Counted from the stretch's first letter, positions 7,443 through 39,557 are shown. The stretch is 64,000 nucleotides of DNA from Escherichia phage vB_EcoM_KWBSE43-6 (NC_048186.1); one strand, 5' to 3'. Program-made: numbers and translations. The notes: generated by a model not told the origin, from the letters alone.

Positions 7443-7449
7443 CTAAATA
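7443..7449 (+). promoter_or_regulatory. late-promoter-like box CTAAATA
   Basis: CACTAAATACAAG 39 nt upstream of ATG 7488; same 13-mer context upstream of 9822 gene. Confidence 0.4.
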
Positions 7450-7487
7450 CAAGAATCAAGCCACAGAAAAACAACAGGAGATTCATC

Positions 7488-9491
7488 ATGAATCCGCAAT
7501 TTAGTCAGCCCGGTGGTTCCGTCTCTAAAGACGTGAACAAACAATCTATCGCACGTGTATTCTCTAAGAAAAAGAGTGATATATCATATTTGAAAGTTGG
7601 TTCTAGCGTTAATGGTTATGCTGTGCTATTCGAGCCGACAACCCAAACGTGTTGGTTTAGAGGGACTGCAACAGGTAATACAGTTTCTTGGACTATCAAC
7701 AATGATATCATGACTTTAGTGACTTCGGGTGGTTCCTTCACTCTGAACAAAGCCCAAGTTTGGGATTCTGTTACACTTTCCGGTGGAAATGCGACGAGTT
7801 TGATCGGAACACCTTCTGGTGGAACGTTAGCTAATCTGTTATTACGGACTGTGTCTCCTGCTGAATTCGGATTAGAAAACGATCCAACAGGAGTCAAAGC
7901 AGATAAAAATACCATGGCTGTTCAAAAGGCTATTCGTTACCTGAATTCTTTGGGTGGTGGACGTCTCTTGTTCCCTACTGGGCAATACACATTTTGCTAT
8001 GGAATTTGGTTGTTTGACAACATTCTGATCGATCTGAACGGTAGCATCTGTACTTTCAAAAACGCAACTTTTCCATTACGCAGTCGGGCATGTTTTGTTA
8101 TGGGTTCTTCTTATGAAGTCAACCGTGACAAGGCTATGAGTTTTTATGATGACGGCACCTACATCAACAACCCAAACCCGACCAATACAGCATATGTGAA
8201 TTTGCCGTTGGGAACGTTTTTGCGTGACAATGTCAATAAAGCGGAAATCAAAAACGCGCATATAATGAATGGGCATATCAAAGCCACGTTTGATTCCCCT
8301 ACTGCAAACGGTGCTTATGCAATAAATATGGCAAATGCGATGTATTGCACAGCACATGATTTATTCTTTACTGGATTCACAGAAGCCATAAACATGGGTT
8401 CGGATACTGGTTCTGAAACTCCGTCTTGCCATGGTTGTCTGGCTCATGATCTTTATATCGTTCAGCCTGACCAAAATAAAACTTATTATTCAATTGGTTT
8501 TATTTCAAACTCCACCAACTGTTCCATTCAACGGGCGATACAATATCTGCCTTGCGCCGCCGGGACAGAGAACGGGTCGGGTGTGGCTACTAACGTCGTT
8601 GAAGATTGTATTATAGAGGACATATTCATACCTTCTTTGGGTATTACGCAATCTTCTGAAGGGGTTCTTTTAAACAACGCAAAAGGATGTGTTGTGAGGA
8701 ACATTTGTGTCCGAAACTGTAAAGTGGTGGTGGCTGTTTATTATGTCAGCACCAGCTATATCAGTGCTGACAAATGGAATCATATTTCTGGCATAACTGG
8801 CCAAGGCACAGTTGCATTGATCGCAGTGCGCGGAAAATATACCACATTTACCGGATTCGCTGCGGATTCAACGACGCCGTATGAAATATATTTCGGGACT
8901 ACAAACGGATCTAACAACCGTATTGAACAAGAACCGGCTAGTATGTATTTCACAGAGACATCAACGGTCAAACAATATTGGTATTGCAATAACAACTACA
9001 TCAAAGGATGGGTCGTCAAATATCTGTATTTGCGGCCAATGAATACACTGGTGAATGACAAATCTGTTGCATTCAACTGGAACATGAACAAATCCGTGTC
9101 AGCCAACGATGACACCACGTTGTATTTCTTATGGGAAGTTCCTCCGTCCGTGAAGGCTATAAAGGCGGTCAAACTTTTCGCATATTACAATACCAACGCA
9201 GTGGCTAAAGGAAGTAATATCAAAATAGAAGTTCGTAGGATGATAGCGTTTGATGGTAACGCTAACACGTTGCCGTACATAGAACCTGCCATTGGTGCAA
9301 CTTCTACAGCAACGGTGGATCAACAGAATATAGCCATGAGCGCGGTTCATTCCGATACGGTTAGTCCCGGCATGGTAGTAACTGGCGATACTACGAATGG
9401 CCTGTCGAATAGTGTTGACATTTTGGTTACGTTTGCCAACACGTCCAAAAACTCTTTAATGAAAGAAATGGAAATTACATACCTGGGGTGA
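7488..9491 (+). CDS. tail spike protein, 667 aa, conserved N-terminal anchor module
   Basis: ATG 7488; N-terminus MNPQFSQPGGSVSKDVNKQSIARVF... shared with 9822 gene and resembling Ackermannviridae tail-spike N-termini; beta-helix-like C-terminal region. Confidence 0.75.
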   Translation: MNPQFSQPGGSVSKDVNKQSIARVFSKKKSDISYLKVGSSVNGYAVLFEPTTQTCWFRGTATGNTVSWTINNDIMTLVTSGGSFTLNKAQVWDSVTLSGGNATSLIGTPSGGTLANLLLRTVSPAEFGLENDPTGVKADKNTMAVQKAIRYLNSLGGGRLLFPTGQYTFCYGIWLFDNILIDLNGSICTFKNATFPLRSRACFVMGSSYEVNRDKAMSFYDDGTYINNPNPTNTAYVNLPLGTFLRDNVNKAEIKNAHIMNGHIKATFDSPTANGAYAINMANAMYCTAHDLFFTGFTEAINMGSDTGSETPSCHGCLAHDLYIVQPDQNKTYYSIGFISNSTNCSIQRAIQYLPCAAGTENGSGVATNVVEDCIIEDIFIPSLGITQSSEGVLLNNAKGCVVRNICVRNCKVVVAVYYVSTSYISADKWNHISGITGQGTVALIAVRGKYTTFTGFAADSTTPYEIYFGTTNGSNNRIEQEPASMYFTETSTVKQYWYCNNNYIKGWVVKYLYLRPMNTLVNDKSVAFNWNMNKSVSANDDTTLYFLWEVPPSVKAIKAVKLFAYYNTNAVAKGSNIKIEVRRMIAFDGNANTLPYIEPAIGATSTATVDQQNIAMSAVHSDTVSPGMVVTGDTTNGLSNSVDILVTFANTSKNSLMKEMEITYLG

Positions 9492-9494
9492 TTT

Positions 9495-9740
9495 ATGCAA
9501 AATTCGGCTATGCGTGATGCGTTATCTCTATTTTATGCTTTATACGACTATTTGGTAAACAAAGTGGAATTGACAGAAACAGAAGAATCTGTCAAATCTA
9601 AAATAGAACAAGATATGGGGATACGTTGTGATGATTCATTGGATGAGCAAATCCTACAACTGCAATCAGAACTAAACCAAGCAGTTGAAGAGGGAGAACG
9701 TCACCAAATCTTAGATAATGTGGTTGAACTTTTGAAATAA
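9495..9740 (+). CDS. hypothetical protein, 81 aa, acidic
   Basis: ATG 9495 four nt after upstream stop; terminator follows. Confidence 0.5.
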   Translation: MQNSAMRDALSLFYALYDYLVNKVELTETEESVKSKIEQDMGIRCDDSLDEQILQLQSELNQAVEEGERHQILDNVVELLK

Positions 9741-9742
9741 CA

Positions 9743-9767
9743 AAGCCCCTTCGGGGGCTTTTCTTTT
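9743..9767 (+). terminator. rho-independent terminator
   Basis: AAGCCCC ttcg GGGGCTT followed by TTCTTTT. Confidence 0.6.
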
Positions 9768-9774
9768 GAACAAA

Positions 9775-9781
9775 CTAAATA
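9775..9781 (+). promoter_or_regulatory. late-promoter-like box CTAAATA
   Basis: AACTAAATACAAGGAG 41 nt upstream of ATG 9822. Confidence 0.4.
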
Positions 9782-9821
9782 CAAGGAGACATTGTTAGAA
9801 AAACAACATGAGGAACCACCC

Positions 9822-12098
9822 ATGAAAACGCAATTTAACCAATCACAAGGCTCAACTTCACGTGAGACGAATAAAGAAGCGATTGCTCGCATCTTTGGTC
9901 TCAAGAAGTCTCAAGTCGGATATCTGTCAACAACCACTCCAATTGATTCGTATGTCATATTGTTTGACAAAGAAACTCAGACGTGTTGGTATCGAGGTAC
10001 AGCAACAGGTACTCCAATTTCTTGGAATGTCAATGGTGAATCATTATCTTTGACAACTAATTCTGGAACTTCTATATTAACTAAATCTAAACCATGGGAT
10101 GAATTGAATCAAAAACTATCATCACCACAAGGATTTGGTGCGATAGGCAAATTTTCTTCTTTGATTAATTTAAGAAATCATGAACCCACATACCCTGGCG
10201 AATCTGTGATTTTAGAAAGAATAGCGTCTGGGAAACCGACAGTTAACGTAGTGCTAAGGCATGATCCTACTGATACCACGTCTGTGGATGACGACATAAG
10301 CATATTTGTTACACCTGGTGGTGCTCGTTGGAAATTGGATATTAGTGATGGTTATGATATGAGACTGGCAGGGGTTAATGTTGATGGTACAAACTTTTCC
10401 TCTGCTTTAAATAAAATAGTCAGTGTCATTATTTCAAAAATAGTAGCTAATGGGCGGGTAAATAATGTTGCTCGTCGCATAAAAGTTGTCCCGACAAATT
10501 TTTTATGTCAATTCTTTTTAACTGATCCTGTTGATTTACCATCAATCGTGTCATGTTCTTTTTATGGGTCACCATTCATAGAATCACAAAACATGACGGG
10601 ACTCTATTCTTTCAGAATAGCCAACCAACCGTTCAGCACGTTGACCAAGGCTATGATGCAAGCAGAAACTTCGTGGCCTAATGGCCCGTTAAACCAAGTT
10701 ATCGGGAATAAAGTTATAAATTCAGGGGATGGCGGGAGAATAACTTTAAGGGGACCCGGATTTTCAGATGGTGTCCCAAGGATAGGTGTTATATTAGGTA
10801 ATGATGTGACCACAGATAAAGACGTGAGGGATTGTAGCGTAGAAGATATGAATATCTTCGGCTTCGACGCTTCTCATACGTTGGGTGGCTATTTTACCTT
10901 TATGGCAGGCTTCCGGAATTGTAACTTCTCGCGTTGTAATGTTGGTATGCGATTACCAAATATCACTGGAAACGCTGGGGAAAGAATGTGGTATGATTCT
11001 TGCACTTTTGGTAACATGACAAGCCATGCATTACACGTATTTGGGGCTGGTACGTATAGCTTGGTCAACACTTCCATAGACTTCATAGGCGGGGATATGT
11101 TCCATTATGGATCTGATTCTTCTGTGTCTATAGAATTTATTTCAGGCCATATAGAAGGTATACAAGGGTATGATGCCGCGAAAGATACTCCGACGAACTA
11201 TTCTCAGGCCAGGGTTCATATCCATTCTGCCGTTCTGAGAGATCCGAGACAAGGAAGCGGCCAATACAGGGGTATAAGGCAACGTTGGTCTTGCCCTTCT
11301 TCTTCATTTGGGCAAGGACTTTCCGTAATAGACGAATCTATTTCCCCCGGAATGGAGAATACAAAACCGAACACTGCATATCCGTGCTTTATGGGTAGTC
11401 CAAGTAATACTGGTGTTTACATAGAAACCCCGCGAACTGCTAACCGGGGAACGCCGTGGTTGAACAGCTATAGTGATTCTTGTTCCAAGAGAATAAATCC
11501 GACATATTTCTTTATAACTTCGGCGGGTACTGGGGAGTTAGGTCAGAGTCAATTAGTGTTGGATTATAACTTTTCATACACCAAAACTGGGGATGGAATA
11601 GTAGAATATGGTGTAGTCGGTGACGCGGATGCAGATGGATTTATACCGTTCAAGATTACTTGTAATGATGTCAATACAGTCATTAATTTGTTCTGTAATA
11701 ACCGATCTAAAGCCACCAACGGAAACAAGCCTTTATGGGGAGCTTGCTCAGTTAAATTGGCGAATTCCGTGGGTGATGTCATGATCGCTCCACTTAGGGC
11801 AACATATTTAGGTTCTACTATCACGTCGATATATAATGACACCACGAAGACGGTAACAAGTACGTTAAATCCTGTTCTTCGTTCAACAAACGTGGGAGTT
11901 GCTCTTAACCTTAGAGATCTGTTGAACGGAAGCGGACTAACAACTAATGACTATCAGGCGACTTATCCTCGATATGTTACTGGTTACTACCAGGGCAATG
12001 ATTTCTTTGTCCCCGGTTTCCGCCTTTGGAATTTCACAGGAACCATATATTTGAAATTGCCTATTTGGTGGTTCGAAGGTGATAACTTTGGAGCATAA
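9822..12098 (+). CDS. tail spike protein, 758 aa, conserved N-terminal anchor module
   Basis: ATG 9822 (GAGGA 8 nt upstream); N-terminus MKTQFNQSQGSTSRETNKEAIARIFG... homologous to 7488 gene; divergent C-terminal receptor-binding/depolymerase region. Confidence 0.75.
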   Translation: MKTQFNQSQGSTSRETNKEAIARIFGLKKSQVGYLSTTTPIDSYVILFDKETQTCWYRGTATGTPISWNVNGESLSLTTNSGTSILTKSKPWDELNQKLSSPQGFGAIGKFSSLINLRNHEPTYPGESVILERIASGKPTVNVVLRHDPTDTTSVDDDISIFVTPGGARWKLDISDGYDMRLAGVNVDGTNFSSALNKIVSVIISKIVANGRVNNVARRIKVVPTNFLCQFFLTDPVDLPSIVSCSFYGSPFIESQNMTGLYSFRIANQPFSTLTKAMMQAETSWPNGPLNQVIGNKVINSGDGGRITLRGPGFSDGVPRIGVILGNDVTTDKDVRDCSVEDMNIFGFDASHTLGGYFTFMAGFRNCNFSRCNVGMRLPNITGNAGERMWYDSCTFGNMTSHALHVFGAGTYSLVNTSIDFIGGDMFHYGSDSSVSIEFISGHIEGIQGYDAAKDTPTNYSQARVHIHSAVLRDPRQGSGQYRGIRQRWSCPSSSFGQGLSVIDESISPGMENTKPNTAYPCFMGSPSNTGVYIETPRTANRGTPWLNSYSDSCSKRINPTYFFITSAGTGELGQSQLVLDYNFSYTKTGDGIVEYGVVGDADADGFIPFKITCNDVNTVINLFCNNRSKATNGNKPLWGACSVKLANSVGDVMIAPLRATYLGSTITSIYNDTTKTVTSTLNPVLRSTNVGVALNLRDLLNGSGLTTNDYQATYPRYVTGYYQGNDFFVPGFRLWNFTGTIYLKLPIWWFEGDNFGA

Positions 12099-12632: not shown

Positions 12633-12656
12633 AGCCCCCTCGGGGGCTTTATTCTT
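12633..12656 (+). terminator. rho-independent terminator
   Basis: AGCCCCC tc GGGGGCT followed by TTATTCTT. Confidence 0.6.
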
Positions 12657-12679: not shown

Positions 12680-12686
12680 CTAAATA
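12680..12686 (+). promoter_or_regulatory. late-promoter-like box CTAAATA
   Basis: TACTAAATAATTCC about 35 nt upstream of ATG 12721. Confidence 0.4.
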
Positions 12687-12720: not shown

Positions 12721-15700
12721 ATGCAACAATTGAATCTTAACCGCCGCCCTTATTGGGACGACTGGAATCCAGAGAAGCGTTTCAGCCGCATCCTGTTCCG
12801 CCCAAATCCAATCAAAGTACAGACTCGTGAGCTGAACCAGCTGCAGACTATCCTACAGGATCAAATTGAGAAGATCGGTAATCATCTTTTCAAAGACGGT
12901 TCCATGGTAATCCCAGGCGGTTTGACTATTACCAATTCGGCTGTATCCATGAAGTTCCAGCTGGCGGGTGGGAGCGAATTCACCGACCTGGAAGGCATTC
13001 AAGAACTGTACGTGATTGGCAAAGACAACAACGCCAAGGCCCGTGTATTGTCTCTGGAACGCTACACCAGCGAACCGGATATGATGTTCTGTATCCTGGA
13101 AATGACCGAGTCCGGCACTGCCGATGGATTCAGCCCGAACGATAATCTATACTTCAACACTTATGATGTGAATGATAACTTCATCCGTATCGGTTATGGT
13201 GTTGCACAGACTGTCGGTGGCTCTATTGTTGCTCGGATGACCAAAGGCGTCTATTTCGTTCGTGGGTTCTTCCTCGACGTTGACGATGATATGTTGGTTG
13301 TCAACAAATATGCAAATAACACCAGCCATCGCGTCGGGTTCAAAGTTACTGAAGAAATCGTGACTGAAGAGCAAGATAGTAGTCTGTTCTCCAATGCCCA
13401 GGGTACACCGAACACCAAAGCGCCGGGCGCTCATCGCCTTCGTTTGGATCTGAGTCTTCAGGCGTTTGATTATGACGCAGAAGTCGAAGATTTCGTTGAG
13501 CTGGCGAAGATCAAAGACGGTAAAATCCAGTCTATGGTCACCCAATCGACGTACAATATCCTCGAAGACACTATGGCCCAGCGCACCTATGAGCAAGCTG
13601 GTGACTACAACGTGTCTACTCACCAGATCGACCTTCGCGAACACCTGAAAGAAAACAACAATGGTGGGGTATATACTCCGGCCGAAGGTGGCGATGAAAG
13701 CAAACTGGTTGCGGTAATGAAGCCGGGCATTTCTTATGTCCGTGGTCGTCGTATTGAGAACGTCGGGGAAGAACTCGTCGTCATTGATAAGGCGCGTGAT
13801 ACAGACCTCCTGAACAACACGCCAGTTGCTGTAGCGACAGGTAATTTCCTGACGACCAAGAACTCTAAAGGTGTTCCTGTTATCAGCCGTAGTATTCGCT
13901 ACAAATTGCTGAATGCTTCTGGTGTTACCCAAGCGACTGCCCTGTGTATCTCCGCCGACCGTACCGGGACGGAATTCCGTCTGTATATGCGTGACCTGGT
14001 CGTCACTGGTGATATGAGCACGGTCACCAAAGTCGCTTACGAAGAAAGCGGGACCACGATGTTCTCGGCAGCGTTGGAAACTAATCAGTTCTCACAAAGT
14101 TCATCTATGGATCTCATATTTGAACTGCCTGTCTTTGGCGTGAAAACTTTGGCTCCGACCGGAACGATTGATATCAACTACACCGTCTTGCGTTCTTACA
14201 AAATTACGCTGGATGCGTCAGGTAACGGTTCTATATCTGCACCGCTGGGATACAGTTTTTCTCCGGAATTCTCACTCTACTCCGGAGCGAAATCTGACGG
14301 AACCGCCGCCCAGATCGATATCTCCAGCAGCCTGTCTCTGACCGGGACACCAGTTGGGTCGGCTCTGCAGATTTCCCTCGGTTCCGGTAATGCTCTGCAA
14401 TCTATCAACCTGTTGGCGCTGATGGTACGCACCACTGCTATCATCAAAACCAAAACTGTTACGACTGCTACTGAGACTGTGATCTTCACCAACCAGGCCA
14501 GCATCCAGCTTGCGAACCATGACGGCTACAAATTGACTTCCGTCAAAAATGCCAATGGTGCTGACGTGACCTCTAACTTCACTCTGGATGGCGGGCAGCG
14601 TGATGCGGCGTACTACAAGTCCAGTCTGATATCGGCCACTGGAGCCATTTCAGGCGCGTATACCGTGGAATACACGTATTTCGCTCACAGTACTGGTGAC
14701 TTCTTTACCGCTGATTCGTATACTTCTATTGATTACAAATCAATCCCGAATTATACGTCGAGCACGTCGGGTACAGTGTATGGTCTGGCCGACAGTATAG
14801 ACTTCCGCCCTAAAATCACCAATGGTGCGTCTGATACTGATATGGTGCGGCCTAACACGGCGATCATCATGGACGTTGAATATTATCTGCCTCGCATTGA
14901 TGCTGTGTACCTGGCAGACAACGGCGTTTTCAACGTTGCTCGTGGTATCAGTTCGAACAACCTGGCGGCTCCGGCTATTCCAGCAAACGCCATGCGTTTG
15001 TACGAACTGTTGATTCCCCCATATACTCCGGATATTGACGATATTCAGATCCGTACTATCGACAACCGCCGCTACACAATGCGGGATATCGGTAAGCTGG
15101 ACACCCGTATATCGAACGTCGAGTATTACACAACACTGTCTCAGCTGGAATCTTCGGCTATGACTCAGCAAGTATTCGACCCGGTAACAGGCAACCCACG
15201 TTACAAAAATGGTATCGCTGCTGATCCGTTCAAAGACTTTCGTCTGATTGATGATCTGTCTTCCGACTGGATGGGTTCCGTAGACACCGACAATGGTCGC
15301 CTGCGTCCGTTTGTACAACAAAACGCGATTGACCTGGTTCCGGATGGGTGGGACAAGGTTATGGACGGTATGGTCGTGTGCAAATACACACCGGAAATTT
15401 CTGTTAATCAGGAATATGCGACGACGACGATCAACGTCAACCCATATGCTGTGTTTAACTGGACGGGGTTCCTCAAACTCAATCCGACAACAGATTACTG
15501 GTTTGAAAACTACTACGTTGCCCCTCGTGTTATCAACGAGACGATCAATACCCGTGGTGCTGTCCAAGAAGGTACGGTTTATGGTACATGGCGGACTGTG
15601 TCTGTATCTGAGCGGGTATGGGAACCGCACGGCGCGGGCGGCGTATGGTGGGGATATCGTTATAGAACCACTGTGTCTACACGTGATGTTTCGACTTACA

Positions 15701-17559
15701 CGTACACGGATACAACCACCACTTCACTTTCTGGCGAACAGATTGTTGAAACTCAGGTTATTCCGTACATGCGTTCAATCGAAATCAACTTTGACGCCAG
15801 CGGCCTGCGCCCGTTCACCAGAATGTATGCATTCTTCTCTGGTCGGGATGTGAATCTGTACTGCAAACCGAACGGCGGGGCATATGGTGCACCGTTGACG
15901 ACGGACGCCAACGGTAATCTGAAAGGTGTATTCAAAGTTCCGCAGAATAACACCATTAAATTCAATACTGGTGACAACGTCTTCCGGTTAACTGACAGCC
16001 CGACTGATAGCAAGTCTGCTGATGATACTCTGACGAATGCCGAGATTGTTCATAAGTCCTTTGGTAAGAAACAAGGTATCCAGAAGACCTATGTTAACAC
16101 ACGTGTCCTGGGTTATACTGTATCGACTAAATCTGAAACAACTTCGTCTGAAGCCGTTGTTGGTCAGTGGCGTGATCCTATCGCACAATCTTTCATGGTG
16201 GCGACCAGCATCGGTGGTGAATACATTGAAGGTGTGGAAGTGTTCTTCTCAAGCAAATCACGTGATGTTCCAGTAACTCTGGAAATCCGTGAGATGAGCA
16301 ATGGCCTTCCGGCAAGTACTGTTATCACCCGGAAAACTTTGAACCCGTCTGACGTCAAAGTATCGAATGACTCTTCCCTCGGGACGAAATTCACTTTCGA
16401 TTATCCAGTATATCTGCAGGCTGGCACAGAGTTTGCTATCGTTCTTCTGGCTAACACCCAGGATTACAATGCTTACATTGCAGAAATGGGTAAAAAGAAT
16501 TTGCTGTCGAACGAATATATCGCCAAACAACCGTATACTGGCGTGTTCTTCACCTCGTCAAACGGTTCAACCTGGTCTCCAAACCAAATGGCGGATATGA
16601 AATTCCGTGTGTATCGCTGTAATTTTGCTGCTGCCGACAACGTGGTGACATTTACTCCGAACGCCGGGCCTAAAATCCGTCCTCTTGGTCTGAACGTGTT
16701 GAACTGCGTCAACGGTTCTACTGTGGTCACAGTTTACGCACCGGGCCATGGTCTTGTTGCGGGCAACTCTGTGACGTTGTCAGAACTGACGGGCGGCTGC
16801 GGCTTTACCGCAGAGCAACTGAATAAAGTTCACACTGTCACGGATGCGAGCTATACTTCATTCAAGATTGATGTTGGCGCAGCTGCGGACAGCGATGGAC
16901 AGATTGGTGGTGAAGACGGTTCTTTCTTGGGCAATTACCTGGTAGATATGTTCTATGCCAGCGTGACCAATTCAGCCCTGGAAGGTTCTATATTGAAACT
17001 GGAATACCGTTATCGTGATTCTACTTCCAATTCTATGTCTGATTGGGCTGAGTTTGAATCTGATACTGATGTTCCTTTGCCAACAGAAGGTATTTATCGT
17101 CAGGCTGGGGATTTCCAGGTAAGAGCCACCATGACTCGCAGCGCGAGCAATGCGTACACGGCACCAATGATTGATGGTGATGACTTAACCGTGGTTCTCA
17201 ACTCGCATGGCGTAGATCCTTTCGAGGACGTTTTCCGCTATGTGACCAAGGACGTAAGTTTTGACAACCCGTGTACAACTTTGAAAATGTACTTCGGCGC
17301 GATGTTGCCTTCTCAGTCCACCATGACTGTACAGGTCAAACTTCTGCGCCCAGGGCAAGAAATGGATTCGATCGAATGGGAAACGGTTACGCCGAATTCT
17401 CCTCTGGTCAACGATGGTTCCGCATTCTTTGAATATGAATACGATAAGACCGTCGACAGCAGCAGTCCATTTTCAGCCCTGAAAGTCAGAGCATTAATTC
17501 GCGGAAGCCGGATAGCCCCACCTTCCTGCAAAGATTTCCGCTTGATTGCTCTGGCATAA
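12721..17559 (+). CDS. large virion structural protein, 1612 aa (baseplate or fiber component, function unassigned)
   Basis: 4.8 kb uninterrupted ORF; ATG 12721 preferred over 12709 because GGAG lies 6 nt upstream; between tail-spike cluster and neck genes. Confidence 0.6.
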   Translation: MQQLNLNRRPYWDDWNPEKRFSRILFRPNPIKVQTRELNQLQTILQDQIEKIGNHLFKDGSMVIPGGLTITNSAVSMKFQLAGGSEFTDLEGIQELYVIGKDNNAKARVLSLERYTSEPDMMFCILEMTESGTADGFSPNDNLYFNTYDVNDNFIRIGYGVAQTVGGSIVARMTKGVYFVRGFFLDVDDDMLVVNKYANNTSHRVGFKVTEEIVTEEQDSSLFSNAQGTPNTKAPGAHRLRLDLSLQAFDYDAEVEDFVELAKIKDGKIQSMVTQSTYNILEDTMAQRTYEQAGDYNVSTHQIDLREHLKENNNGGVYTPAEGGDESKLVAVMKPGISYVRGRRIENVGEELVVIDKARDTDLLNNTPVAVATGNFLTTKNSKGVPVISRSIRYKLLNASGVTQATALCISADRTGTEFRLYMRDLVVTGDMSTVTKVAYEESGTTMFSAALETNQFSQSSSMDLIFELPVFGVKTLAPTGTIDINYTVLRSYKITLDASGNGSISAPLGYSFSPEFSLYSGAKSDGTAAQIDISSSLSLTGTPVGSALQISLGSGNALQSINLLALMVRTTAIIKTKTVTTATETVIFTNQASIQLANHDGYKLTSVKNANGADVTSNFTLDGGQRDAAYYKSSLISATGAISGAYTVEYTYFAHSTGDFFTADSYTSIDYKSIPNYTSSTSGTVYGLADSIDFRPKITNGASDTDMVRPNTAIIMDVEYYLPRIDAVYLADNGVFNVARGISSNNLAAPAIPANAMRLYELLIPPYTPDIDDIQIRTIDNRRYTMRDIGKLDTRISNVEYYTTLSQLESSAMTQQVFDPVTGNPRYKNGIAADPFKDFRLIDDLSSDWMGSVDTDNGRLRPFVQQNAIDLVPDGWDKVMDGMVVCKYTPEISVNQEYATTTINVNPYAVFNWTGFLKLNPTTDYWFENYYVAPRVINETINTRGAVQEGTVYGTWRTVSVSERVWEPHGAGGVWWGYRYRTTVSTRDVSTYTYTDTTTTSLSGEQIVETQVIPYMRSIEINFDASGLRPFTRMYAFFSGRDVNLYCKPNGGAYGAPLTTDANGNLKGVFKVPQNNTIKFNTGDNVFRLTDSPTDSKSADDTLTNAEIVHKSFGKKQGIQKTYVNTRVLGYTVSTKSETTSSEAVVGQWRDPIAQSFMVATSIGGEYIEGVEVFFSSKSRDVPVTLEIREMSNGLPASTVITRKTLNPSDVKVSNDSSLGTKFTFDYPVYLQAGTEFAIVLLANTQDYNAYIAEMGKKNLLSNEYIAKQPYTGVFFTSSNGSTWSPNQMADMKFRVYRCNFAAADNVVTFTPNAGPKIRPLGLNVLNCVNGSTVVTVYAPGHGLVAGNSVTLSELTGGCGFTAEQLNKVHTVTDASYTSFKIDVGAAADSDGQIGGEDGSFLGNYLVDMFYASVTNSALEGSILKLEYRYRDSTSNSMSDWAEFESDTDVPLPTEGIYRQAGDFQVRATMTRSASNAYTAPMIDGDDLTVVLNSHGVDPFEDVFRYVTKDVSFDNPCTTLKMYFGAMLPSQSTMTVQVKLLRPGQEMDSIEWETVTPNSPLVNDGSAFFEYEYDKTVDSSSPFSALKVRALIRGSRIAPPSCKDFRLIALA

Positions 17560-19192: not shown

Positions 19193-19199
19193 CTAAATA
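19193..19199 (+). promoter_or_regulatory. late-promoter-like box CTAAATA
   Basis: CGACTAAATACC 30 nt upstream of ATG 19223. Confidence 0.4.
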
Positions 19200-23448: not shown

Positions 23449-23455
23449 CTAAATA
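23449..23455 (+). promoter_or_regulatory. late-promoter-like box CTAAATA
   Basis: CACTAAATATC 43 nt upstream of ATG 23498. Confidence 0.4.
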
Positions 23456-25461: not shown

Positions 25462-25917
25462 ATGATATTTGCATACAAAATTGAAATGATATCTAACAAC
25501 AAGGTCTACATCGGTGTGACCAATGATCCGCAAAGGCGATATGAGCAACATTTGGCCAATGCATTTCAATATAATGTTGAAAGTGAATTGTATGATGCCA
25601 TGCGCAAATATGGGGCTTCCGCTTTTACTTTCGTGATTATTGCTCAAACCGATGAAGTCCACAAATGGGAATTGGAAAAGCAATTAATTGCTCAATACGA
25701 TTCTTATGAATTGGGCTACAACATGAATAAAGGCGGTAACGATGGAAGTCATCTGGTTGGTAAAGCTGCTGCTAAATTGACCTCCACTGGAGAACATATT
25801 GGTATGGTCTCATTAATTGATCCACGTTGGGATCTCTGTGAGATTGAACCAGTACGGAACAATGTTGATCATGGCTTTGATCTCAGTAAATTGACGATCA
25901 AAAGATTAACAGACTAA
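25462..25917 (+). CDS. GIY-YIG endonuclease (free-standing homing endonuclease-like), 151 aa
   Basis: YKIEMISNNKVYIGVTNDPQRRYEQH aligns with I-TevI GIY-YIG catalytic core; conserved R, E and N (GYNMNKGG) present; inserted between sheath and tube genes. Confidence 0.8.
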   Translation: MIFAYKIEMISNNKVYIGVTNDPQRRYEQHLANAFQYNVESELYDAMRKYGASAFTFVIIAQTDEVHKWELEKQLIAQYDSYELGYNMNKGGNDGSHLVGKAAAKLTSTGEHIGMVSLIDPRWDLCEIEPVRNNVDHGFDLSKLTIKRLTD

Positions 25918-25951
25918 TTAGAATTGTGTAACTCTTTTTGGAGAATGTATA

Positions 25952-26485: not shown

Positions 26486-26553
26486 CGTTACACGTGGTGG
26501 GGGAATTTATTTCCCCCTCACTAATTACAAGAAAACGTTGAGGACATATAATC

Positions 26554-28248: not shown

Positions 28249-28255
28249 CTAAATA
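28249..28255 (+). promoter_or_regulatory. late-promoter-like box CTAAATA
   Basis: CAACTAAATATAG 28 nt upstream of ATG 28283. Confidence 0.4.
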
Positions 28256-28282
28256 TAGAAAATTAACTTCGGAGATACAATC

Positions 28283-28447: not shown

Positions 28448-28456
28448 GTGATTAAT

Positions 28457-28765
28457 ATGGAAATCAAAGAAATTGCCACGTTCGCTGATTTCCTGGCTTC
28501 CCGCATGGACGAACAGAAAGTCATCGATAAAGTGAACGCAAAAGGTAAACGCCGTCGTCGTTTAAAATGCGCTCCTGGATTCAAACTTTCCGCTGATGGT
28601 TCTCGTTGTGAAGTCATGAACGCCAGCGAGCGTCGTACCCGTAAACTGGGCAACCGGAAAGCCATACGCGCTAAAAAACGTATGGGCCTGGGGTATGAAC
28701 GCAAAGTGGAGCGGCGTAAAAAGAAAGCCATGAAGTTCCGTAAAATGATGGGACTGAGCAAGTAA
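28457..28765 (+). CDS. basic protein, 102 aa (possible gp68-like prohead core / internal protein)
   Basis: ATG 28457; Arg/Lys-rich; synteny with T4 gene 68. Confidence 0.5.
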   Translation: MEIKEIATFADFLASRMDEQKVIDKVNAKGKRRRRLKCAPGFKLSADGSRCEVMNASERRTRKLGNRKAIRAKKRMGLGYERKVERRKKKAMKFRKMMGLSK

Positions 28766-28772
28766 GGAGCAA

Positions 28773-29441
28773 ATGATGAAACTGTTGCGTGAGATCACGG
28801 CGATAGGAAAGGAACTTCAGATCGGGGAAGCGCAAACTTCCACTGGTGGGAAGGCCATGTTCATCGAAGGTCCGTTTGTGATGTGTAACCAGGTTAACCG
28901 CAACGGGCGCAACTACGACCTTGAAAAAGTCGGTCGCCCTGCTGTGGAAGCATATGACCGGGAATACATTCAAGATCGTCGCGCAATCGGTGAACTCAAG
29001 CATCCTGACTATCCATTTCCTGATATCGAACATGCCGCCCTCAAAACCGAGTCACTCGTGTGGCAAGGCAACAATGCAATCGGGCGGGCGCGTATTTTAA
29101 ACACCCCCAAAGGTCAGATCATCCGTGCTCTGGCTGATGCGGACTTCAACCTGGCTGTCTCTACACGTGGCCTGGGTGAGACAGTAGAAGTTAACGGCTA
29201 TGATGACGTCAAGCCGGGCTTCATGCTTACCGCTGTTGATGCTGTCGACCGTCCTTCTGGACAAGTTTGTTATGTAAAAGCGGTTCACGAATCTGTAGAC
29301 TGGCAACTTGATGAATCCTCTGGTATCTGGATGCCTCGGGACATCAAAGGTCAGGTTGTAGACAATCTGGTTAAACACAATAGCCAGCTTGAAGACGACT
29401 TCCTGCGCCGTCTTGATTTAGCTCTTAAAAAATTGGGTTGA
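28773..29441 (+). CDS. gp21: prohead core protease gp21
   Basis: GELKHP, GRARI, STRGLG and TAVDAV motifs parallel T4 gp21. Confidence 0.85.
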   Translation: MMKLLREITAIGKELQIGEAQTSTGGKAMFIEGPFVMCNQVNRNGRNYDLEKVGRPAVEAYDREYIQDRRAIGELKHPDYPFPDIEHAALKTESLVWQGNNAIGRARILNTPKGQIIRALADADFNLAVSTRGLGETVEVNGYDDVKPGFMLTAVDAVDRPSGQVCYVKAVHESVDWQLDESSGIWMPRDIKGQVVDNLVKHNSQLEDDFLRRLDLALKKLG

Positions 29442-29451
29442 TTTCAGCTCA

Positions 29452-29458
29452 CTAAATA
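29452..29458 (+). promoter_or_regulatory. late-promoter-like box CTAAATA
   Basis: CACTAAATACTG 29 nt upstream of ATG 29487. Confidence 0.4.
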
Positions 29459-29486
29459 CTGAAAAATCGTTCAGAAGGAAATTATC

Positions 29487-30347
29487 ATGAAACCTGAATT
29501 ACAAAAACTGTTTGAGGGCGTTAATGGCCTCAGCACCGAGTTCCTGGACAAAGTGAGCGGTCTGATGGAGGCTAAAGTCGGCGAAGCCCGTCTTCAGGCT
29601 ATCCAAGAGACTGAACATGTTGCCCACCAGGAACGTCTGAAACTGGTGGAAGCGCATCAGCAAGAAATCGCTAACCTGAAAGAAACTCATATTCAGGAAG
29701 TGGCGACCAAAGTTGATGCATTCCTGAATGCCGTGGTTGAAGAATGGGCGAACAAAAATGCTCCGGCTATTGACGCTACCATCAAAACCGAAGCGGCTGA
29801 AAAATTCCTGTCTGGTATGGTCAACGTGCTGAAAGAAGCCAACGTTGAATTTACTGTAGACACCGACGGCCAGATCGCGGCCCTGACTCATCGTCTGGCG
29901 GAAGCAGAAAAACGTGCAAACGTTTCTGAATCCGAGCTGAAACAGATCCGTGAACAAGAAAGTGTCCGCCAGCGCAATAACGTCATTGACGAAATTTGCG
30001 AAGGCATGGTCAGTACCAAAAAAGAAGTCGTTGTTGGCCTTCTGGAAGGTATTCAATTTTCTGACGCCTCTTCCTTCGGCGCTCGCGTTCGCACCTTCCG
30101 CAACCTGGTAGAAGGTAACAAAGACGACTTTACTGACAAAGTCGGTAAAGACAACGAAGGCGGTAAATCTTCTGATGATCAGGAAAAAGACATCAAAGAA
30201 GGCAAAAAACAGAAAAAAGAAGGCGACGATGACGATGATGACGACAACGACAACGACGATGACCCTGATGAAACCGACAAAGAACTGAAAGAGTCGGTCA
30301 GCCGTCAGCTGGAAGAATACCGTCGTATGCGTGGTCTGAAAGGCTAA
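29487..30347 (+). CDS. gp22: prohead scaffold protein gp22
   Basis: Coiled-coil, highly acidic C-terminal tract DDDDDDDNDNDDDPDE; between protease and capsid genes. Confidence 0.8.
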   Translation: MKPELQKLFEGVNGLSTEFLDKVSGLMEAKVGEARLQAIQETEHVAHQERLKLVEAHQQEIANLKETHIQEVATKVDAFLNAVVEEWANKNAPAIDATIKTEAAEKFLSGMVNVLKEANVEFTVDTDGQIAALTHRLAEAEKRANVSESELKQIREQESVRQRNNVIDEICEGMVSTKKEVVVGLLEGIQFSDASSFGARVRTFRNLVEGNKDDFTDKVGKDNEGGKSSDDQEKDIKEGKKQKKEGDDDDDDDNDNDDDPDETDKELKESVSRQLEEYRRMRGLKG

Positions 30348-30361
30348 ATTTTGCAGCCACA

Positions 30362-30389
30362 GCCCTCTATAAAAGGGGGCTTGATTTTG
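30362..30389 (+). terminator. terminator-like hairpin
   Basis: GCCCTCT ataaaa GGGGGC (one G-U pair) followed by TTGATTTTG. Confidence 0.45.
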
Positions 30390-30394
30390 AACGA

Positions 30395-30401
30395 CTAAGT
30401 A
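30395..30401 (+). promoter_or_regulatory. late-promoter-like box variant CTAAGTA
   Basis: One mismatch to CTAAATA, 41 nt upstream of ATG 30442. Confidence 0.3.
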
Positions 30402-30441
30402 ATTTCAACTTAACTGAATATCAATGTAAGGAATGAGCATC

Positions 30442-31764
30442 ATGGCTAAGAAACTTGTTACTGAACAAATGCGCGAAACGTGGCTGCCGGTTCTGAATGA
30501 AGAATCCAAATCTATTCAGCCGCTGTCTGCCGAAAACGTCGCGGTTCGCCTGCTGCAGAACCAGGCCGAATGGAACGCCAAAAACCTGGGCGAATCCGAA
30601 GCGCCGGGTTCTCTGAACACCACTGTCGGTAAATGGCAACCGGTTCTGATCGATATGGCAAAACGTCTGGCGCCGATCAACATCGCGATGGACTTCTTCG
30701 GCGTTCAGCCGCTGTCTGGTCCGGACGGTCAGATCTTCGCACTGCGTGCTCGCCAGGGCGTTGCTGACGGTTCTAACACCCAGCAGTCCCGTAAAGAACT
30801 GTTCATGCAGGAAGCCGATTCCGGTTATTCTGGTGACGGTACTGTACAGGCTGGCGACCCGTCTGGCTTCACCCAGGCTGAGATCGAAGGTTCCGGCGCT
30901 GGCACCACCACCATCGGTAAAGGTATGCCGTCGACCGACGCTGAACTGCTGGGCTCTCCGTCCAATCCGTGGGCGCGTGTTGGTATCACCGTTCAAAAAG
31001 CGACCGTTACTGCGAAATCTCGCGGCCTGTACGCTGATTACAGCCACGAACTGCGCCAGGATATGATGGCGATCCACGGCGAAGACGTGGACAACATTCT
31101 GTCCGACGTGATGGTAACTGAAATTCAGGCGGAAATGAACCGCGAATTCATCCGCACCATGAACTTCAGCGCAGTGCGTTTCAAAAAATTCGGCACCAAC
31201 GGTATCGTAGACATCGCTCAAGACATCTCCGGTCGTTGGGCGCTGGAAAAATGGAAATTCCTGACCTTCATCCTGGAAGTTGAAGCGAACGGTATCGGCG
31301 TCGACACCCGTCGTGGTAAAGGCAACCGTGTTCTGTGTTCCCCGAACGTAGCGTCCGCGCTGGCAATGTCCGGCATGCTGGATTACGCTCCAGTTCTGCA
31401 GGAAAACACCAAGCTGGCGGTTGACCCGACTGGTCAGACCTTTGCGGGCGTTCTGTCCAACGGTATGCGCGTCTATATCGACCCGTATGCAGTAGCAGAA
31501 TATATCACCCTGGCGTACAAAGGCGCAACTGCGCTGGATGCTGGTATCTTCTTCGCACCTTACGTGCCGCTGGAAATGTACCGTACCCAGGGTGAAAGCA
31601 CCTTCGCACCGCGTATGGCGTTCAAAACCCGTTACGGTATCTGCGCGAACCCGTTCGTACAGATCCCGGCGAACCAAGACCCGCAGGTATACGTTACTGC
31701 CGATGGCATCGCCCAAGACAGCAACCCGTACTTCCGTAAAGGTCTCATCAAATCTCTGTTCTAA
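30442..31764 (+). CDS. gp23: major capsid protein gp23
   Basis: ATG 30442 preferred (ATG 30433 abuts the SD); FFGVQPLSGPDGQIFALRA and KSRGLYADYSHELRQDMMAIHG match T4 gp23. Confidence 0.9.
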   Translation: MAKKLVTEQMRETWLPVLNEESKSIQPLSAENVAVRLLQNQAEWNAKNLGESEAPGSLNTTVGKWQPVLIDMAKRLAPINIAMDFFGVQPLSGPDGQIFALRARQGVADGSNTQQSRKELFMQEADSGYSGDGTVQAGDPSGFTQAEIEGSGAGTTTIGKGMPSTDAELLGSPSNPWARVGITVQKATVTAKSRGLYADYSHELRQDMMAIHGEDVDNILSDVMVTEIQAEMNREFIRTMNFSAVRFKKFGTNGIVDIAQDISGRWALEKWKFLTFILEVEANGIGVDTRRGKGNRVLCSPNVASALAMSGMLDYAPVLQENTKLAVDPTGQTFAGVLSNGMRVYIDPYAVAEYITLAYKGATALDAGIFFAPYVPLEMYRTQGESTFAPRMAFKTRYGICANPFVQIPANQDPQVYVTADGIAQDSNPYFRKGLIKSLF

Positions 31765-31784
31765 TCGGACAGCTGATCTGAATC

Positions 31785-31812
31785 AAACCCCGCCATGTGC
31801 GGGGTTTTTCTT
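31785..31812 (+). terminator. rho-independent terminator (sequence repeated at 49594)
   Basis: AAACCCCGC catgt GCGGGGTTT TTCTTT. Confidence 0.65.
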
Positions 31813-31863
31813 TATACACCCTCAGTGTTATTATATTATGGTCTATCACTGAGGAAACAAAAC

Positions 31864-32109
31864 ATGAATCTGTCAGGAGCAGCAATTGATGTTCTATACC
31901 AACTTTTCTGGTTTGGGCCAAGAGAAGCTGGTGAAATTCCGTCTAAATCTGGTGAGTTGGAATTGTTGTCTAAAGGGTTGTGCGAAAGATTAGATCTGGT
32001 TTCTACACCCAAAGGCAAAGATACTCATCTCTGCGTTTTGACTCCAAATGGTTACATCCAATCCCGCGCTCTTTTCTTCCATTCCAACAAACAGGAAATC
32101 AAATCATGA
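31864..32109 (+). CDS. hypothetical protein, 81 aa
   Basis: ATG 31864 after GAGGA; SD lies in right arm of inverted repeat CCTCAGTG/CACTGAGG. Confidence 0.5.
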   Translation: MNLSGAAIDVLYQLFWFGPREAGEIPSKSGELELLSKGLCERLDLVSTPKGKDTHLCVLTPNGYIQSRALFFHSNKQEIKS

Positions 32110-36354: not shown

Positions 36355-36383
36355 TTAAATACCCCCATCAATTGGGGGTATTT
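36355..36383 (+). promoter_or_regulatory. late-promoter-like box TTAAATA inside an 11-bp palindrome abutting the start codon
   Basis: Arms AAATACCCCCA 36357-36367 and TGGGGGTATTT 36373-36383, 5-nt loop; ATG 36388. Confidence 0.5.
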
Positions 36384-36387
36384 TCTT

Positions 36388-37116
36388 ATGAACGCACAAA
36401 TTTATGACGCCCTTGAACAAGGCAATGCATTTAACAATCCTCTCCCGGGATTCTCTGCTACTTCTCAGACGTTAATCACCAGTGGCCAACAAAGTATAGC
36501 TGGTATTACAAGCATCCCGGATACGTCCGTTCAGGCGGCGATAACCGCTGGTGGTTTGACTCCTGCTAAACTCAATACAATGAACACCATGTACGGGACT
36601 GCCAACACCGGGATCGGGACTCTGAATTCTTATGGTGACCAGACCGTTAATGAGGCATACAATAGGATCGGAACTTCAGTATCCTATAAATCCGGCCTCA
36701 AAAGTATTGAACGAGAACCCACCAACTGTGATTTGATTAACAACGCATTCGGTGTTGTACAGACACTTGGTCGTCAATGGTTGACTGCAATGGAGGATGC
36801 CTTATCTCCAATAACAGACAAAGTTCAAGAACTGTATGATCTGGCCAAACAAGGCGCGGCGGCGGGGCTGGCCAAAATACAGGCATTAGCCTCACAGGTC
36901 AACGGATTAATCAATGACGCTGTAGCAAAGGTGAATGGTGTTATTCAGAACATCACTGATGGGATAGCTGCTGAGTTAGCTCATATTGAAGATATGGTGA
37001 AGAAGTGTCTTAATTTCTCCTTTGCTAATGTTCTTGGCGAATGGGCAAAAGATCTTTGCGCAGGCGGTGTCATCAACAATATCGGTTCTAATGATCTGAA
37101 AAATGCCCTGAAATAA
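36388..37116 (+). CDS. hypothetical late protein, 242 aa, coiled-coil-rich (possible virion component)
   Basis: ATG 36388; same palindromic late element as two tail-spike genes. Confidence 0.6.
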   Translation: MNAQIYDALEQGNAFNNPLPGFSATSQTLITSGQQSIAGITSIPDTSVQAAITAGGLTPAKLNTMNTMYGTANTGIGTLNSYGDQTVNEAYNRIGTSVSYKSGLKSIEREPTNCDLINNAFGVVQTLGRQWLTAMEDALSPITDKVQELYDLAKQGAAAGLAKIQALASQVNGLINDAVAKVNGVIQNITDGIAAELAHIEDMVKKCLNFSFANVLGEWAKDLCAGGVINNIGSNDLKNALK

Positions 37117-37767: not shown

Positions 37768-37805
37768 CAGGGACACAATTAATCTCCACAGCAAAGGTGC
37801 TAACA

Positions 37806-38306
37806 ATGTCTACTTCAGTCCAATTCAAACATGACAACCCAAATTATGCAGCATCCGATAAGTGGCGCTTAACTATCGGTGATCTGATATTGTTATCCCG
37901 CTCTGTACACGATTTTAGCATACCAGGCGTGTATTCCGAGGGCATCGATGGGCCTTCGCCCGGTTCAGTGCTCAACACGATCCCTTCTGAACGTTTAACA
38001 TATGATCCCATCGTATTTACGTTCGTTATCGATGAGGATTGGGTAAACTGGGAAACCATCTACAACTGGATAGCCAGCAACGCCGCCGCTGATATGGCTG
38101 TTAGTAAAGACATCACCATAGAATTACTCAACAACATGAACCGCCCGGTTGGCCTGCAACTTCTGTTGGAAGAAGCACGTCCAACTGCACTGGACAACGT
38201 TCTTGTTGATGTGGACGCTTCTGTTCCCCAATTAGTTACAACGGTGACTTTCAAGTATCTGAAACTGACACCGACCCGTGTCGTACGTGAAATTGATAAA
38301 GAATGA
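37806..38306 (+). CDS. hypothetical protein, 166 aa
   Basis: ATG 37806; diverges from lipoprotein gene across a 38-bp spacer. Confidence 0.55.
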   Translation: MSTSVQFKHDNPNYAASDKWRLTIGDLILLSRSVHDFSIPGVYSEGIDGPSPGSVLNTIPSERLTYDPIVFTFVIDEDWVNWETIYNWIASNAAADMAVSKDITIELLNNMNRPVGLQLLLEEARPTALDNVLVDVDASVPQLVTTVTFKYLKLTPTRVVREIDKE

Positions 38307-38343
38307 GTTATAATAGAGAGAGTTGAAAAGGTGGGAATATTTT

Positions 38344-38805
38344 ATGGAAGTTAACAACACTCAATATCAAACGATGTCTATAGAGGACATCATGGCTGAA
38401 CTGGATCCACTGATTACGGTTGATCCAGCTGATCGTAATTTAGATCAGATTTCGTTGAAGATCGGACGTTCCTTTATGACAGTGCAGCGGCATTACATTC
38501 GTGAAGGGCGTTATCTGGAATATCTGACTGGGCGGTTTAAACAGATTGATGTTTATCTGCGGAGATATTATGCCGGGGAATTACCTGCGCAATCGTACCG
38601 AGATCGTCCTCTCAACAACAAACCACTGAAAACTGATCTGCCTCTATGGGTCCAGGCTGATGACATGTATGTTGAGATGTCCGGGCTGCTCCAAGAGCAG
38701 AGAGCAAAAGTGAAATTCATCGAAAGTTGTTTGGATCGTTTGAACAAGCTGGGTTATGAAGTCAAAAACGCCATAGATTGGCGAAAATACATGGACGGTA
38801 TGTAG
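38344..38805 (+). CDS. possible recombination mediator UvsY-like protein, 153 aa
   Basis: C-terminal half aligns loosely with remembered T4 UvsY; adjacent to nuclease and UvsW. Confidence 0.4.
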   Translation: MEVNNTQYQTMSIEDIMAELDPLITVDPADRNLDQISLKIGRSFMTVQRHYIREGRYLEYLTGRFKQIDVYLRRYYAGELPAQSYRDRPLNNKPLKTDLPLWVQADDMYVEMSGLLQEQRAKVKFIESCLDRLNKLGYEVKNAIDWRKYMDGM

Positions 38806-38807
38806 CG

Positions 38808-39554
38808 ATGAGTCGACTCCAGGCACTCAAGAAGATCAACAATATTGAGGAACGTCAATATACATTTCAGCAGTACGAATTACCGTACAAGGAGCTGACT
38901 TGTGTAACGAACGAGAATGGACGCCATTACGTTTCCCCAACAGGAGTAAAGTTGACCTCTGTGACAACCATGTTGGGGCGTACCAGTGATCATACATGGT
39001 TGGATGCCTGGGTCGAAAGGCTTGGAGTTGAAGAAGCAGCAATTGAAACACAAAGGTGCGCTGATAGGGGAGAGGCAGTGCATCTTGCTTGTGAGTTATA
39101 TCTGAAGAATGCCCCAATGAAAGATGTTGTGGCCGCCGCCGGACAATATCTGTTCATGTTCATGCAGTTGTTTCCCTATCTGAACCGCATGACAAAGATA
39201 TATGCTCAGGAAATACCTCTATATAGCGAAGTATTGGGCTTGGCCGGGCGTGTGGATTTAATTGGGGTGTACAACGGAACCCCAGCAATTATCGACTTCA
39301 AGACTTCGAACACCCTGAAAACCAGAGACATGATCGAGGATTACAGCATCCAATTGTGTCTGTATTCAGTTATGTTTCAACAGATGTTTAATGTCAAAAT
39401 CGAGCGTCTCATCAACATCATATCCAATGAGAATGGTTTACTGCCGACAGTAATAGAATTCGACAGAAAGGATATTCTCCCAAAAATGTTCGAGCGCGTC
39501 CGTTTATATCACCGTATGGACAAGGAACAGAATGGAATCTGGGCAGACCGCTAA
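38808..39554 (+). CDS. PD-(D/E)xK family nuclease (RecB/Cas4-like exonuclease fold), 248 aa
   Basis: Motifs GEAVH, GRVDL, IIDFKTS, QLCLY in canonical order. Confidence 0.65.
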   Translation: MSRLQALKKINNIEERQYTFQQYELPYKELTCVTNENGRHYVSPTGVKLTSVTTMLGRTSDHTWLDAWVERLGVEEAAIETQRCADRGEAVHLACELYLKNAPMKDVVAAAGQYLFMFMQLFPYLNRMTKIYAQEIPLYSEVLGLAGRVDLIGVYNGTPAIIDFKTSNTLKTRDMIEDYSIQLCLYSVMFQQMFNVKIERLINIISNENGLLPTVIEFDRKDILPKMFERVRLYHRMDKEQNGIWADR

Positions 39555-39557
39555 ATA
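39551..39557 (+). promoter_or_regulatory. late-promoter-like box CTAAATA
   Basis: GCTAAATACTCC 25 nt upstream of ATG 39582. Confidence 0.35.

Follow-up and report, generated by a model that had tools for sequence, protein, structure and literature searches.

Gene content of the window

The stretch of DNA analysed here, referred to below as the window, comprises 64,000 nucleotides (nt) of Escherichia phage vB_EcoM_KWBSE43-6 (NC_048186.1). The element in question is the heptamer CTAAATA, which recurs a short distance upstream of virion genes and which we consider as a candidate late promoter element. Bases 28000-32000 of the window showed 98-99% identity with the Klebsiella phages KP6F1, Menlow and many others, and by its sequence the phage is a member of the family Ackermannviridae, genus Taipeivirus. 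A map of 82 genes was built with a scorer that uses codon usage and Shine-Dalgarno sequences, and after three corrections by hand this map agreed with the annotation of Menlow. The gene order was likewise that of Menlow. The first part of the window contains four tail-spike genes, a VrlC-like gene encoding a protein of 1612 amino acids (aa), and the genes for neck, terminase, sheath, tube, portal, scaffold and major head proteins; the second part contains uvsY/uvsW, the genes for the clamp, the clamp loader, regA, RNase H and a late sigma factor, and gp47.

CTAAATA is enriched upstream of start codons

We found 13 copies of CTAAATA in the window, 11 on the plus strand and two on the minus strand, against an expectation of 6.5 ± 2.5 from dinucleotide shuffles. 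The box had been noticed in an earlier reading of the window made from the sequence alone (the sequence-only reading), which placed it 23-43 nt upstream of structural-gene starts and proposed counting it against expectation and examining its positional bias. The count bore this out: 10 of the 11 plus-strand copies ended 23-42 nt 5' of a plus-strand start codon. The upstream zone used for measuring enrichment extended from -15 to -50 relative to the start codons, and since this zone covers just 4.3% of window positions, the occurrence of 10 of 11 copies within it corresponds to a binomial P of 2.5e-13. Among all 7-mers CTAAATA ranked first for enrichment in the zone, and the 7-mers in ranks 2 and 3, ACTAAAT and TAAATAC, overlap it. 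When intergenic DNA alone was considered, 10 copies were counted where shuffles gave 0.72, and the opposite strand had none. The three copies that do not precede a start, at 6596 (plus strand) and at 5780 and 11805 (minus strand), all lie inside genes, and the one at 6596 is probably there by chance rather than as a promoter.

Alignment of the sites gave the extended consensus a-CTAAATA-c. No conserved position was detected in the box sites upstream of the initial A, neither a -35 element nor a TG extension. The genes behind the boxes are virion genes plus uvsW, and uvsW is a late gene in T4. The T4 late promoter consists of an 8 base pair (bp) element, TATAAATA, at positions -13 to -6, without a -35 element (PMC1524935, PMC2988020). 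The resemblance to it that had been pointed out in the sequence-only reading is supported by position, strand, gene class, conservation and the presence of gp55 and gp45 homologues. The same reading described the change as a replacement of the first T by C, and this description has to be corrected: when the box is aligned to TATAAATA, position -13 is A in nine of 10 sites and the C replaces the A at -12. As expected of T4-type late promoters, the box stands without a -35 element upstream of virion genes and on their coding strand, in a genome that encodes a member of the gp55 family.

Conservation of the box in other Ackermannviridae

For the comparison with other phages we used approximately 26 kb around the major head gene of each genome. 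The genomes compared were those of CBA120 (Kuttervirus), XF4 (Limestonevirus), phiEa2809 (Nezavisimistyvirus) and Kevin (Miltonvirus), and further those of Vibrio K485, Kuja (Kujavirus) and Acinetobacter nACB2. An unbiased 7-mer test placed CTAAATA at the top upstream of genes in Menlow, CBA120, XF4, phiEa2809, Kevin and Kuja. The box preceded the orthologous gp14, gp18, gp19, gp20, gp22, gp23, DUF7217 and uvsW genes, and the intergenic flanks around it had diverged. Since the box was kept at the same orthologs amid diverged flanks, it has the character of a phylogenetic footprint of a functional signal. The box of the 1612-aa gene at 12680 was kept in CBA120 and Kevin.

Two local observations were made in the course of this comparison. 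A perfect TATAAT is located at 39563-39568, 6 nt 3' of the uvsW box; CBA120 and XF4 keep the box and not the TATAAT. In Kuja, CTATATA was found upstream of gp14, gp20, a small gene, gp22 and gp23, and CTAAATA before gp18 and gp3. This distribution suggests, from the genome sequence, that late-promoter specificity may have shifted or relaxed in Kujavirus.

Sequence variation within the box

Position 5 of the box, corresponding to -8, is degenerate. The single-base variants at this position were all located upstream of starts (CTAAGTA 2/2, CTAATTA 2/2, CTAACTA 1/1), and the box can therefore be written as CTAANTA, of which 15 of the 16 copies lie 15-50 nt upstream of starts. This form adds the sites of gp19, gp20, gp23, regA and gene 54535. 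Other single-mismatch variants (CTCAATA, CAAAATA, CTGAATA, CTAAATT and similar ones) showed no upstream enrichment and were rejected as promoters. The two variants cited in the sequence-only reading were present in the places where it had put them, CTAAGTA in front of gp23 (30395) and TTAAATA in front of the 36388 gene (36355). Six sites were absent from it: those of gp19, gp20, regA and the 54535 gene, the minus-strand TATAAATA, and a weaker ATAAATA at 17556. The last was rejected as a promoter because it sits upstream of a terminator hairpin.

Variation was also seen between orthologous sites. At gp23, CTAAGTA occurs in Menlow, CBA120 and XF4 as well, and CTAAATA in phiEa2809 and Kevin. The regA site has the same CTAAGTA in CBA120 and TTAAATA in Kevin. 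It is position 1 that varies at the DUF7217 gene, which is preceded by TTAAATA in the window and in CBA120, by CTAAATA in XF4 and by ATAAATA in phiEa2809 and Kevin. All sites of the window are listed in Table 1, together with the genes of the two putative transcription proteins. The gp19 box overlaps the last codon and the stop codon of a gene for a GIY-YIG homing endonuclease (25462-25917), which lies between the sheath and tube genes and is found there likewise in Menlow, CBA120 and XF4.

Table 1. Box sites and related features of the window
Feature	Position	Strand	Context
CTAAATA	863..869	+	36 nt 5' of tail-spike gene 906-3935; 5' part of hairpin 865-901 (AAATACCCCTAG / CTAGGGGTATTT)
CTAAATA	4175..4181	+	34 nt 5' of tail-spike gene 4216-6795; GGGG Shine-Dalgarno hidden by hairpin 4177-4212, of which the box is the 5' part
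CTAAATA	7443..7449	+	38 nt 5' of tail-spike gene 7488-9491; leader blocks ACTAAATACAAG and AGAAAAACAACA in common with the 9775 leader
CTAAATA	9775..9781	+	40 nt 5' of tail-spike gene 9822-12098; directly after terminator-like hairpin 9742-9761
CTAAATA	12680..12686	+	34 nt 5' of 1612-aa gene 12721-17559 (DUF4815, VrlC-like); after terminator-like hairpin 12633-12648
CTAAATA	19193..19199	+	23 nt 5' of gp14-like gene 19223-19864
CTAAATA	23449..23455	+	42 nt 5' of tail sheath gene (gp18) 23498-25393; box kept in 8/9 phages compared
CTAATTA variant	25914..25920	+	31 nt 5' of tail tube gene (gp19) 25952-26485; ortholog site CTAAATA in XF4, phiEa2809 and Kevin
CTAATTA variant	26521..26527	+	26 nt 5' of portal gene (gp20) 26554-28236; ortholog site CTAAATA in phiEa2809, Kevin and Vibrio K485
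CTAAATA	28249..28255	+	27 nt 5' of 54-aa gene 28283-28447, followed by head scaffold 28457-28765 and protease 28773-29441
CTAAATA	29452..29458	+	28 nt 5' of gp22 scaffold gene 29487-30347
CTAAGTA variant	30395..30401	+	40 nt 5' of major head gene (gp23) 30442-31764; after terminator-like hairpin 30361-30381
TTAAATA variant	36355..36361	+	26 nt 5' of DUF7217 gene 36388-37116; hairpin 36357-36383 (AAATACCCCC / GGGGGTATTT) buries the Shine-Dalgarno
CTAAATA	39551..39557	+	24 nt 5' of uvsW helicase gene 39582-41099; overlaps end of preceding gene
CTAAGTA variant, candidate	43952..43958	+	29 nt 5' of regA-like translation repressor gene 43988-44452; overlaps clamp-loader stop codon (clamp-loader gene 42545-43959)
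CTAACTA variant, candidate, weakest of the set	54499..54505	+	29 nt 5' of gene 54535-54984
Perfect TATAAATA	61570..61577	-	31 nt 5' of minus-strand gene 60771-61538 (phrog_3833); sole copy in the window
CTAAATA	6596..6602	+	Inside tail-spike gene 4216-6795; next start 195 nt away
gp55-like late sigma factor	62123..62893	+	Presumed reader of the box
gp45-like sliding clamp	41791..42459	+	phrog_223

Leaders of the tail-spike genes 7488 and 9822

The sequence-only reading had also drawn attention to a 13-mer, ACTAAATACAAGR, shared by two tail-spike genes, and had concluded that the promoter was duplicated with the gene. The 13-mer was present at 7442 and at 9774. Both leaders contain ACTAAATACAAG, followed 11 nt on by AGAAAAACAACA and then by a homologous coding start, and a duplication of the promoter together with the gene is plausible, given the homology of the leaders over the whole distance between box and start codon. 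The N-terminal protein modules of the 7488 and 9822 genes, however, are only 44% identical over 95 residues. In paralogues of such age, the persistence of two perfect 12-nt blocks speaks for purifying selection acting on the leader and against a copy made recently. The same leader, AGAAAAACAA, is found at orf210 of CBA120.

An A-rich block, AGAAAAACAAC(A), was observed just before the Shine-Dalgarno sequence at 7458-7469 and 9790-9801 and upstream of orf210 in CBA120. It is more conserved than the coding sequence, and the tail-spike genes concerned have a common N-terminal module. The block may be a translation enhancer.

Predicted hairpins at a subset of boxes

At the sites 863, 4175 and 36355 the AAATA of the box and the CCCC behind it can pair with a downstream GGGGTATTT located 8-10 nt before the start codon. 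The GGGG within GGGGTATTT, which at the first of these sites lies in the 3' arm of hairpin 865-901, is the only Shine-Dalgarno-like element of each of the three genes. A weaker hairpin is predicted at 19197-19218, in which sequence adjoining the 19193 box pairs with a GAGGG Shine-Dalgarno. Folding calculations gave the Shine-Dalgarno sequence at 863, 4175, 36355 and 19193 a predicted probability of being unpaired of 0.01-0.13 in read-through RNA versus 0.28-0.55 in RNA from the predicted start, and the remaining box sites showed no such change of accessibility. When the 82 genes were ranked by occlusion of the ribosome site, the three genes with box and CCCC took the top three places, and box genes were enriched among occluded ribosome sites (Fisher P = 0.012).

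The hairpin of the DUF7217 gene was kept in five genera, with loop lengths and inner stems that differ. Because its outer nine pairs are invariant there is almost no formal covariation, and it is the differences in the loop and inner stem alone that support the structure. The gp14 hairpin was kept in three genera and lost in two. The same hairpin cassette precedes three of the four tail-spike genes of CBA120. As to their sequence, the cassettes 863-905 and 4175-4215 are nearly identical to those before orf211, orf212 and orf213 of CBA120, and the bodies of the tail-spike genes differ; it is speculation that the cassettes could serve as homology anchors for the exchange of tail spikes.

The arrangement has a counterpart in T4. 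At the genes e, soc, 49 and I-TevI of T4 the late promoter encodes the 5' strand of a helix that hides the Shine-Dalgarno sequence, and only late RNA is translated (PMC3014915). The layout known from gene e was found in the predicted folds at 863, 4175, 36355 and 19193, and we infer that translation may be gated at the hairpin sites as it is at gene e. RNA reading through from upstream would fold and hide the ribosome site, and might also terminate at the hairpin. RNA initiated from the box, if it starts 6 nt after the box as in T4, would lack the 5' arm and would thus be translatable. With such a cassette, read-through RNA would be terminated or silenced and only RNA initiated late would be translated; termination may be a further function of the hairpins.

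The gp55-like sigma factor and the sliding clamp

The product of 62123-62893, a protein of 256 aa, matched phrog_234, annotated as 'late sigma transcription factor', with E = 3e-54. Its sole match among solved structures was T4 gp55 (PDB 7d7c chain F, E = 0.006). A tblastn search with this product returned annotated gp55 genes of cyanophages and Aeromonas phages, and Pfam gave no match to the protein, the family assignment coming from PHROGs. The gp55-like late sigma factor that the sequence-only reading had placed at 62123 is borne out by the PHROGs and 7d7c matches. The gp45 sliding clamp is an activator of late transcription in T4, and a gp45-like gene is present. No homologue of the co-activator gp33 turned up in the window, in which no search aimed at gp33 was made; gp33 homologues have been reported elsewhere in the genomes of Ackermannviridae phages in papers on relatives.

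Three bases are flipped out by gp55 in the open complex of T4: -12, which stacks on Y97, -9 (N13, H95) and -8 (T99). We compared the residues of these pockets in an alignment of eight gp55 proteins. Relative to T4, the gp55 of the window keeps N13, R57, F86 and T99 and has the changes L54M, H95F and Y97W. The gp55 of Aeromonas phage Aeh1, whose late promoter also has C at -12 (see below), keeps H95 and Y97 and has L54F, R57H and T99S. Y97 is also kept in the gp55 of Vibrio K368, and K485, a near-identical relative of K368, has CTAAATA boxes. A pocket change common to the window phage and Aeh1 was considered as the cause of C(-12) and was rejected, none being present among the aligned residues. 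It is a tentative proposal that the gp55 of the window family, with W for Y97 and F for H95, reads C(-12) strictly and tolerates any base at -8, a specificity unlike that of T4.

Other features of the window

A Rfam scan of the entire window found no known RNA family. ARAGORN called a 91-nt tRNA-Thr with anticodon GGT at 47534-47624 on the minus strand, within the plus-strand gene 47124-49160; since the Rfam scan gave no RNA family there, this call is probably a false positive. At 51543-51657 the window contains a 55-bp tandem duplication (2.1 copies, 98% identical), which is not present in Menlow. It causes a frameshift in a conserved gene of 732 aa, which is split into the open reading frames 50195-51622 and 51573-52448. 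The duplication could be a real mutation or an assembly artefact.

Discussion

The explanation that we hold with considerable confidence is that the CTAAATA box is the -10-like element of gp55-type late promoters, with gating by the leader as a part of the explanation. Such a promoter would read A(-13) C(-12) T A A A(-8) T A(-6) and would function without a -35 element. Late in infection the core RNA polymerase of the host would carry the gp55-like sigma factor of the phage and, by analogy with T4, would be assisted by a gp33-like co-activator and the gp45 clamp. The DNA would be opened at the box and RNA would start about 6 nt downstream, a position assumed from T4. The transcripts would have short leaders of about 17-36 nt in front of the four tail-spike genes and the genes for the 1612-aa protein, neck, sheath, tube, portal, scaffold and major head, and the DUF7217 structural gene and uvsW would be transcribed in the same way, as probably would regA. 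Many of the boxes come directly after a terminator-like hairpin, an arrangement by which each late unit would be insulated from the preceding one.

The box keeps to one strand and is invariably placed in the leader ahead of a start codon, and we considered that it might act in RNA. Long polycistronic transcripts initiated elsewhere would then carry it as a nuclease processing site, as a stand-by site for ribosomes or as an enhancer of translation. Other conserved leader blocks exist, for example AGAAAAACAACA, and the sequence alone cannot separate a DNA signal from an RNA signal. The box nevertheless stands at anything between 23 and 42 nt from the start, and for translation elements a fixed distance is usual; the box is identical to a published gp55-type late consensus and a sigma factor is encoded in the window; and read-through RNA would be scarce right after terminator-like hairpins, where many of the boxes are located. 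An action in RNA is for these reasons very unlikely. We are just as reluctant to see in the box a -10 element of host sigma-70 that lacks a good -35, with genes that do not form a separate late class. TAAATA agrees with TATAAT at four of six positions, and a TATAAT is found just 3' of the uvsW box. That TATAAT is lost in CBA120 and XF4, however, where the box is kept. Only A(-13) is conserved upstream of the heptamer, with no -35 and no TG extension, a scan of the window with the sigma-70 consensus gave hits at chance level and no site that uses the box as its -10, and the invariant C(-12) is not a feature of sigma-70 promoters.

The box could also be the A-tract of intrinsic terminators (AAATA-stem-TATTT) and recur because terminators recur between genes. 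Exactly this layout is seen at 863, 4175 and 36355, and the equivalent of the 36355 site is annotated as a terminator in Menlow. Such a hairpin is lacking, though, at 12 of the 16 upstream sites, pairing does not need the invariant C and T before AAATA, and boxes behind a separate terminator outnumber those that belong to one, so that we regard this explanation as extremely improbable.

Several observations weigh against the late promoter explanation itself. The sequence just after the box is often rich in C (C at +1 in seven of 10 sites, CCCC at three), and the corresponding region of T4 late promoters is A/T-rich (PMC2988020). The sigma factor does not account simply for the box, since no change of a gp55 pocket residue is common to Aeh1 and the window phage despite the same C(-12), and T99, which contacts A(-8) in T4 gp55, is kept here although -8 varies; the -8 variants may thus be weaker promoters, or the register may differ. 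The hairpin stems, invariant in the outer nine pairs and almost without formal covariation, could be simply terminators. A search of the literature for 5' ends, timing data or in vitro transcription from Ackermannviridae found none in the papers covered, and in a 2024 review of the family the words promoter, sigma and transcript do not occur.

The motif as such is not new. Its first description, in the form CTAAATAcCcc, is said to be that in the 'Viunalikevirus' proposal of Adriaenssens et al. 2012. The 2020 genome paper on EspM4VN quotes it as one of 'two unique regulatory motifs' of Ackermannviridae ('Viunalikevirus') phages (PMC7283392), and its heptamer and family are the same as in the window; our literature search found no experimental test of the CTAAATAcCcc motif. 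According to Kutter et al. 2011 the sequence of the late promoter of these phages had not been identified, and Anany et al. 2011 ran a search for TATAAATA with one mismatch permitted. For Aeromonas phage Aeh1, CTAAATA from -12 was identified as the late promoter in front of T4 late gene orthologues (Nolan et al. 2006, PMC1524935), and Geiduschek and Kassavetis describe it as a variant with a/gC at -13/-12 in place of TA (PMC2988020). The Aeh1 heptamer is identical to the box of the window, where A-C-TAAATA represents the same variant. Aeh1 is however a member of another family, Straboviridae, and its gp55 is only distantly similar to the sigma factor of the window: it was not among the tblastn matches listed, and the gp55 of the related ZPAH1 has 27% identity.

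With T4 the window shares an 8-bp -10-like box without a -35 element, located about one helical turn 5' of the predicted start, and homologues of gp55 and gp45. It differs from T4 in having C instead of A at -12, the base that in T4 is stacked on Y97 in a deep pocket of gp55 where the window protein has W. It differs further in the degenerate -8 and in the region 3' of the box, which is often C-rich and not A/T-rich. The layout at 863, 4175 and 36355 is the same as that of the T4 gene e type, but the device is a predicted one in the window, it serves tail-spike and structural genes instead of lysozyme and homing endonuclease genes, and it may also terminate transcription. Since the motif has already been published for Ackermannviridae, as an in silico signal only, and is known in identical form from Aeh1, the finding is an ordinary one. 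What is added here are the degenerate -8, six extra candidate sites and the hairpin cassettes.

These cassettes bear on the cCcc tail that the published motif includes. In the window only two of the 10 exact sites have this tail, the full 11-mer CTAAATACCCC being present at 863 and 4175, and the number rises to three with TTAAATACCCC at 36355; the tail is confined to sites with a hairpin that hides the Shine-Dalgarno sequence. The hairpin cassettes would thereby explain the tail of the published consensus. We tentatively propose, as a possibility that we would not yet call probable, that the cCcc tail is a second layer of control and not a part of the promoter. The tail-spike and DUF7217 genes of Taipeivirus and Kuttervirus would then be equipped with cassettes of promoter, hairpin and ribosome site, which are possible anchors for swaps, and gp55 would be strict at -12 and loose at -8.

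The understanding of T4-type late transcription is unchanged by these results, which extend a known scheme to one more genome. The late-promoter model would provide a transcription map for a family of phages that has been widely proposed for therapy and biocontrol of Klebsiella, Salmonella, E. coli O157 and Dickeya, and would show engineers who exchange tail spikes where promoters should be put or retained. The hairpin cassettes would account for the silencing of four tail-spike genes up to the late phase of infection.

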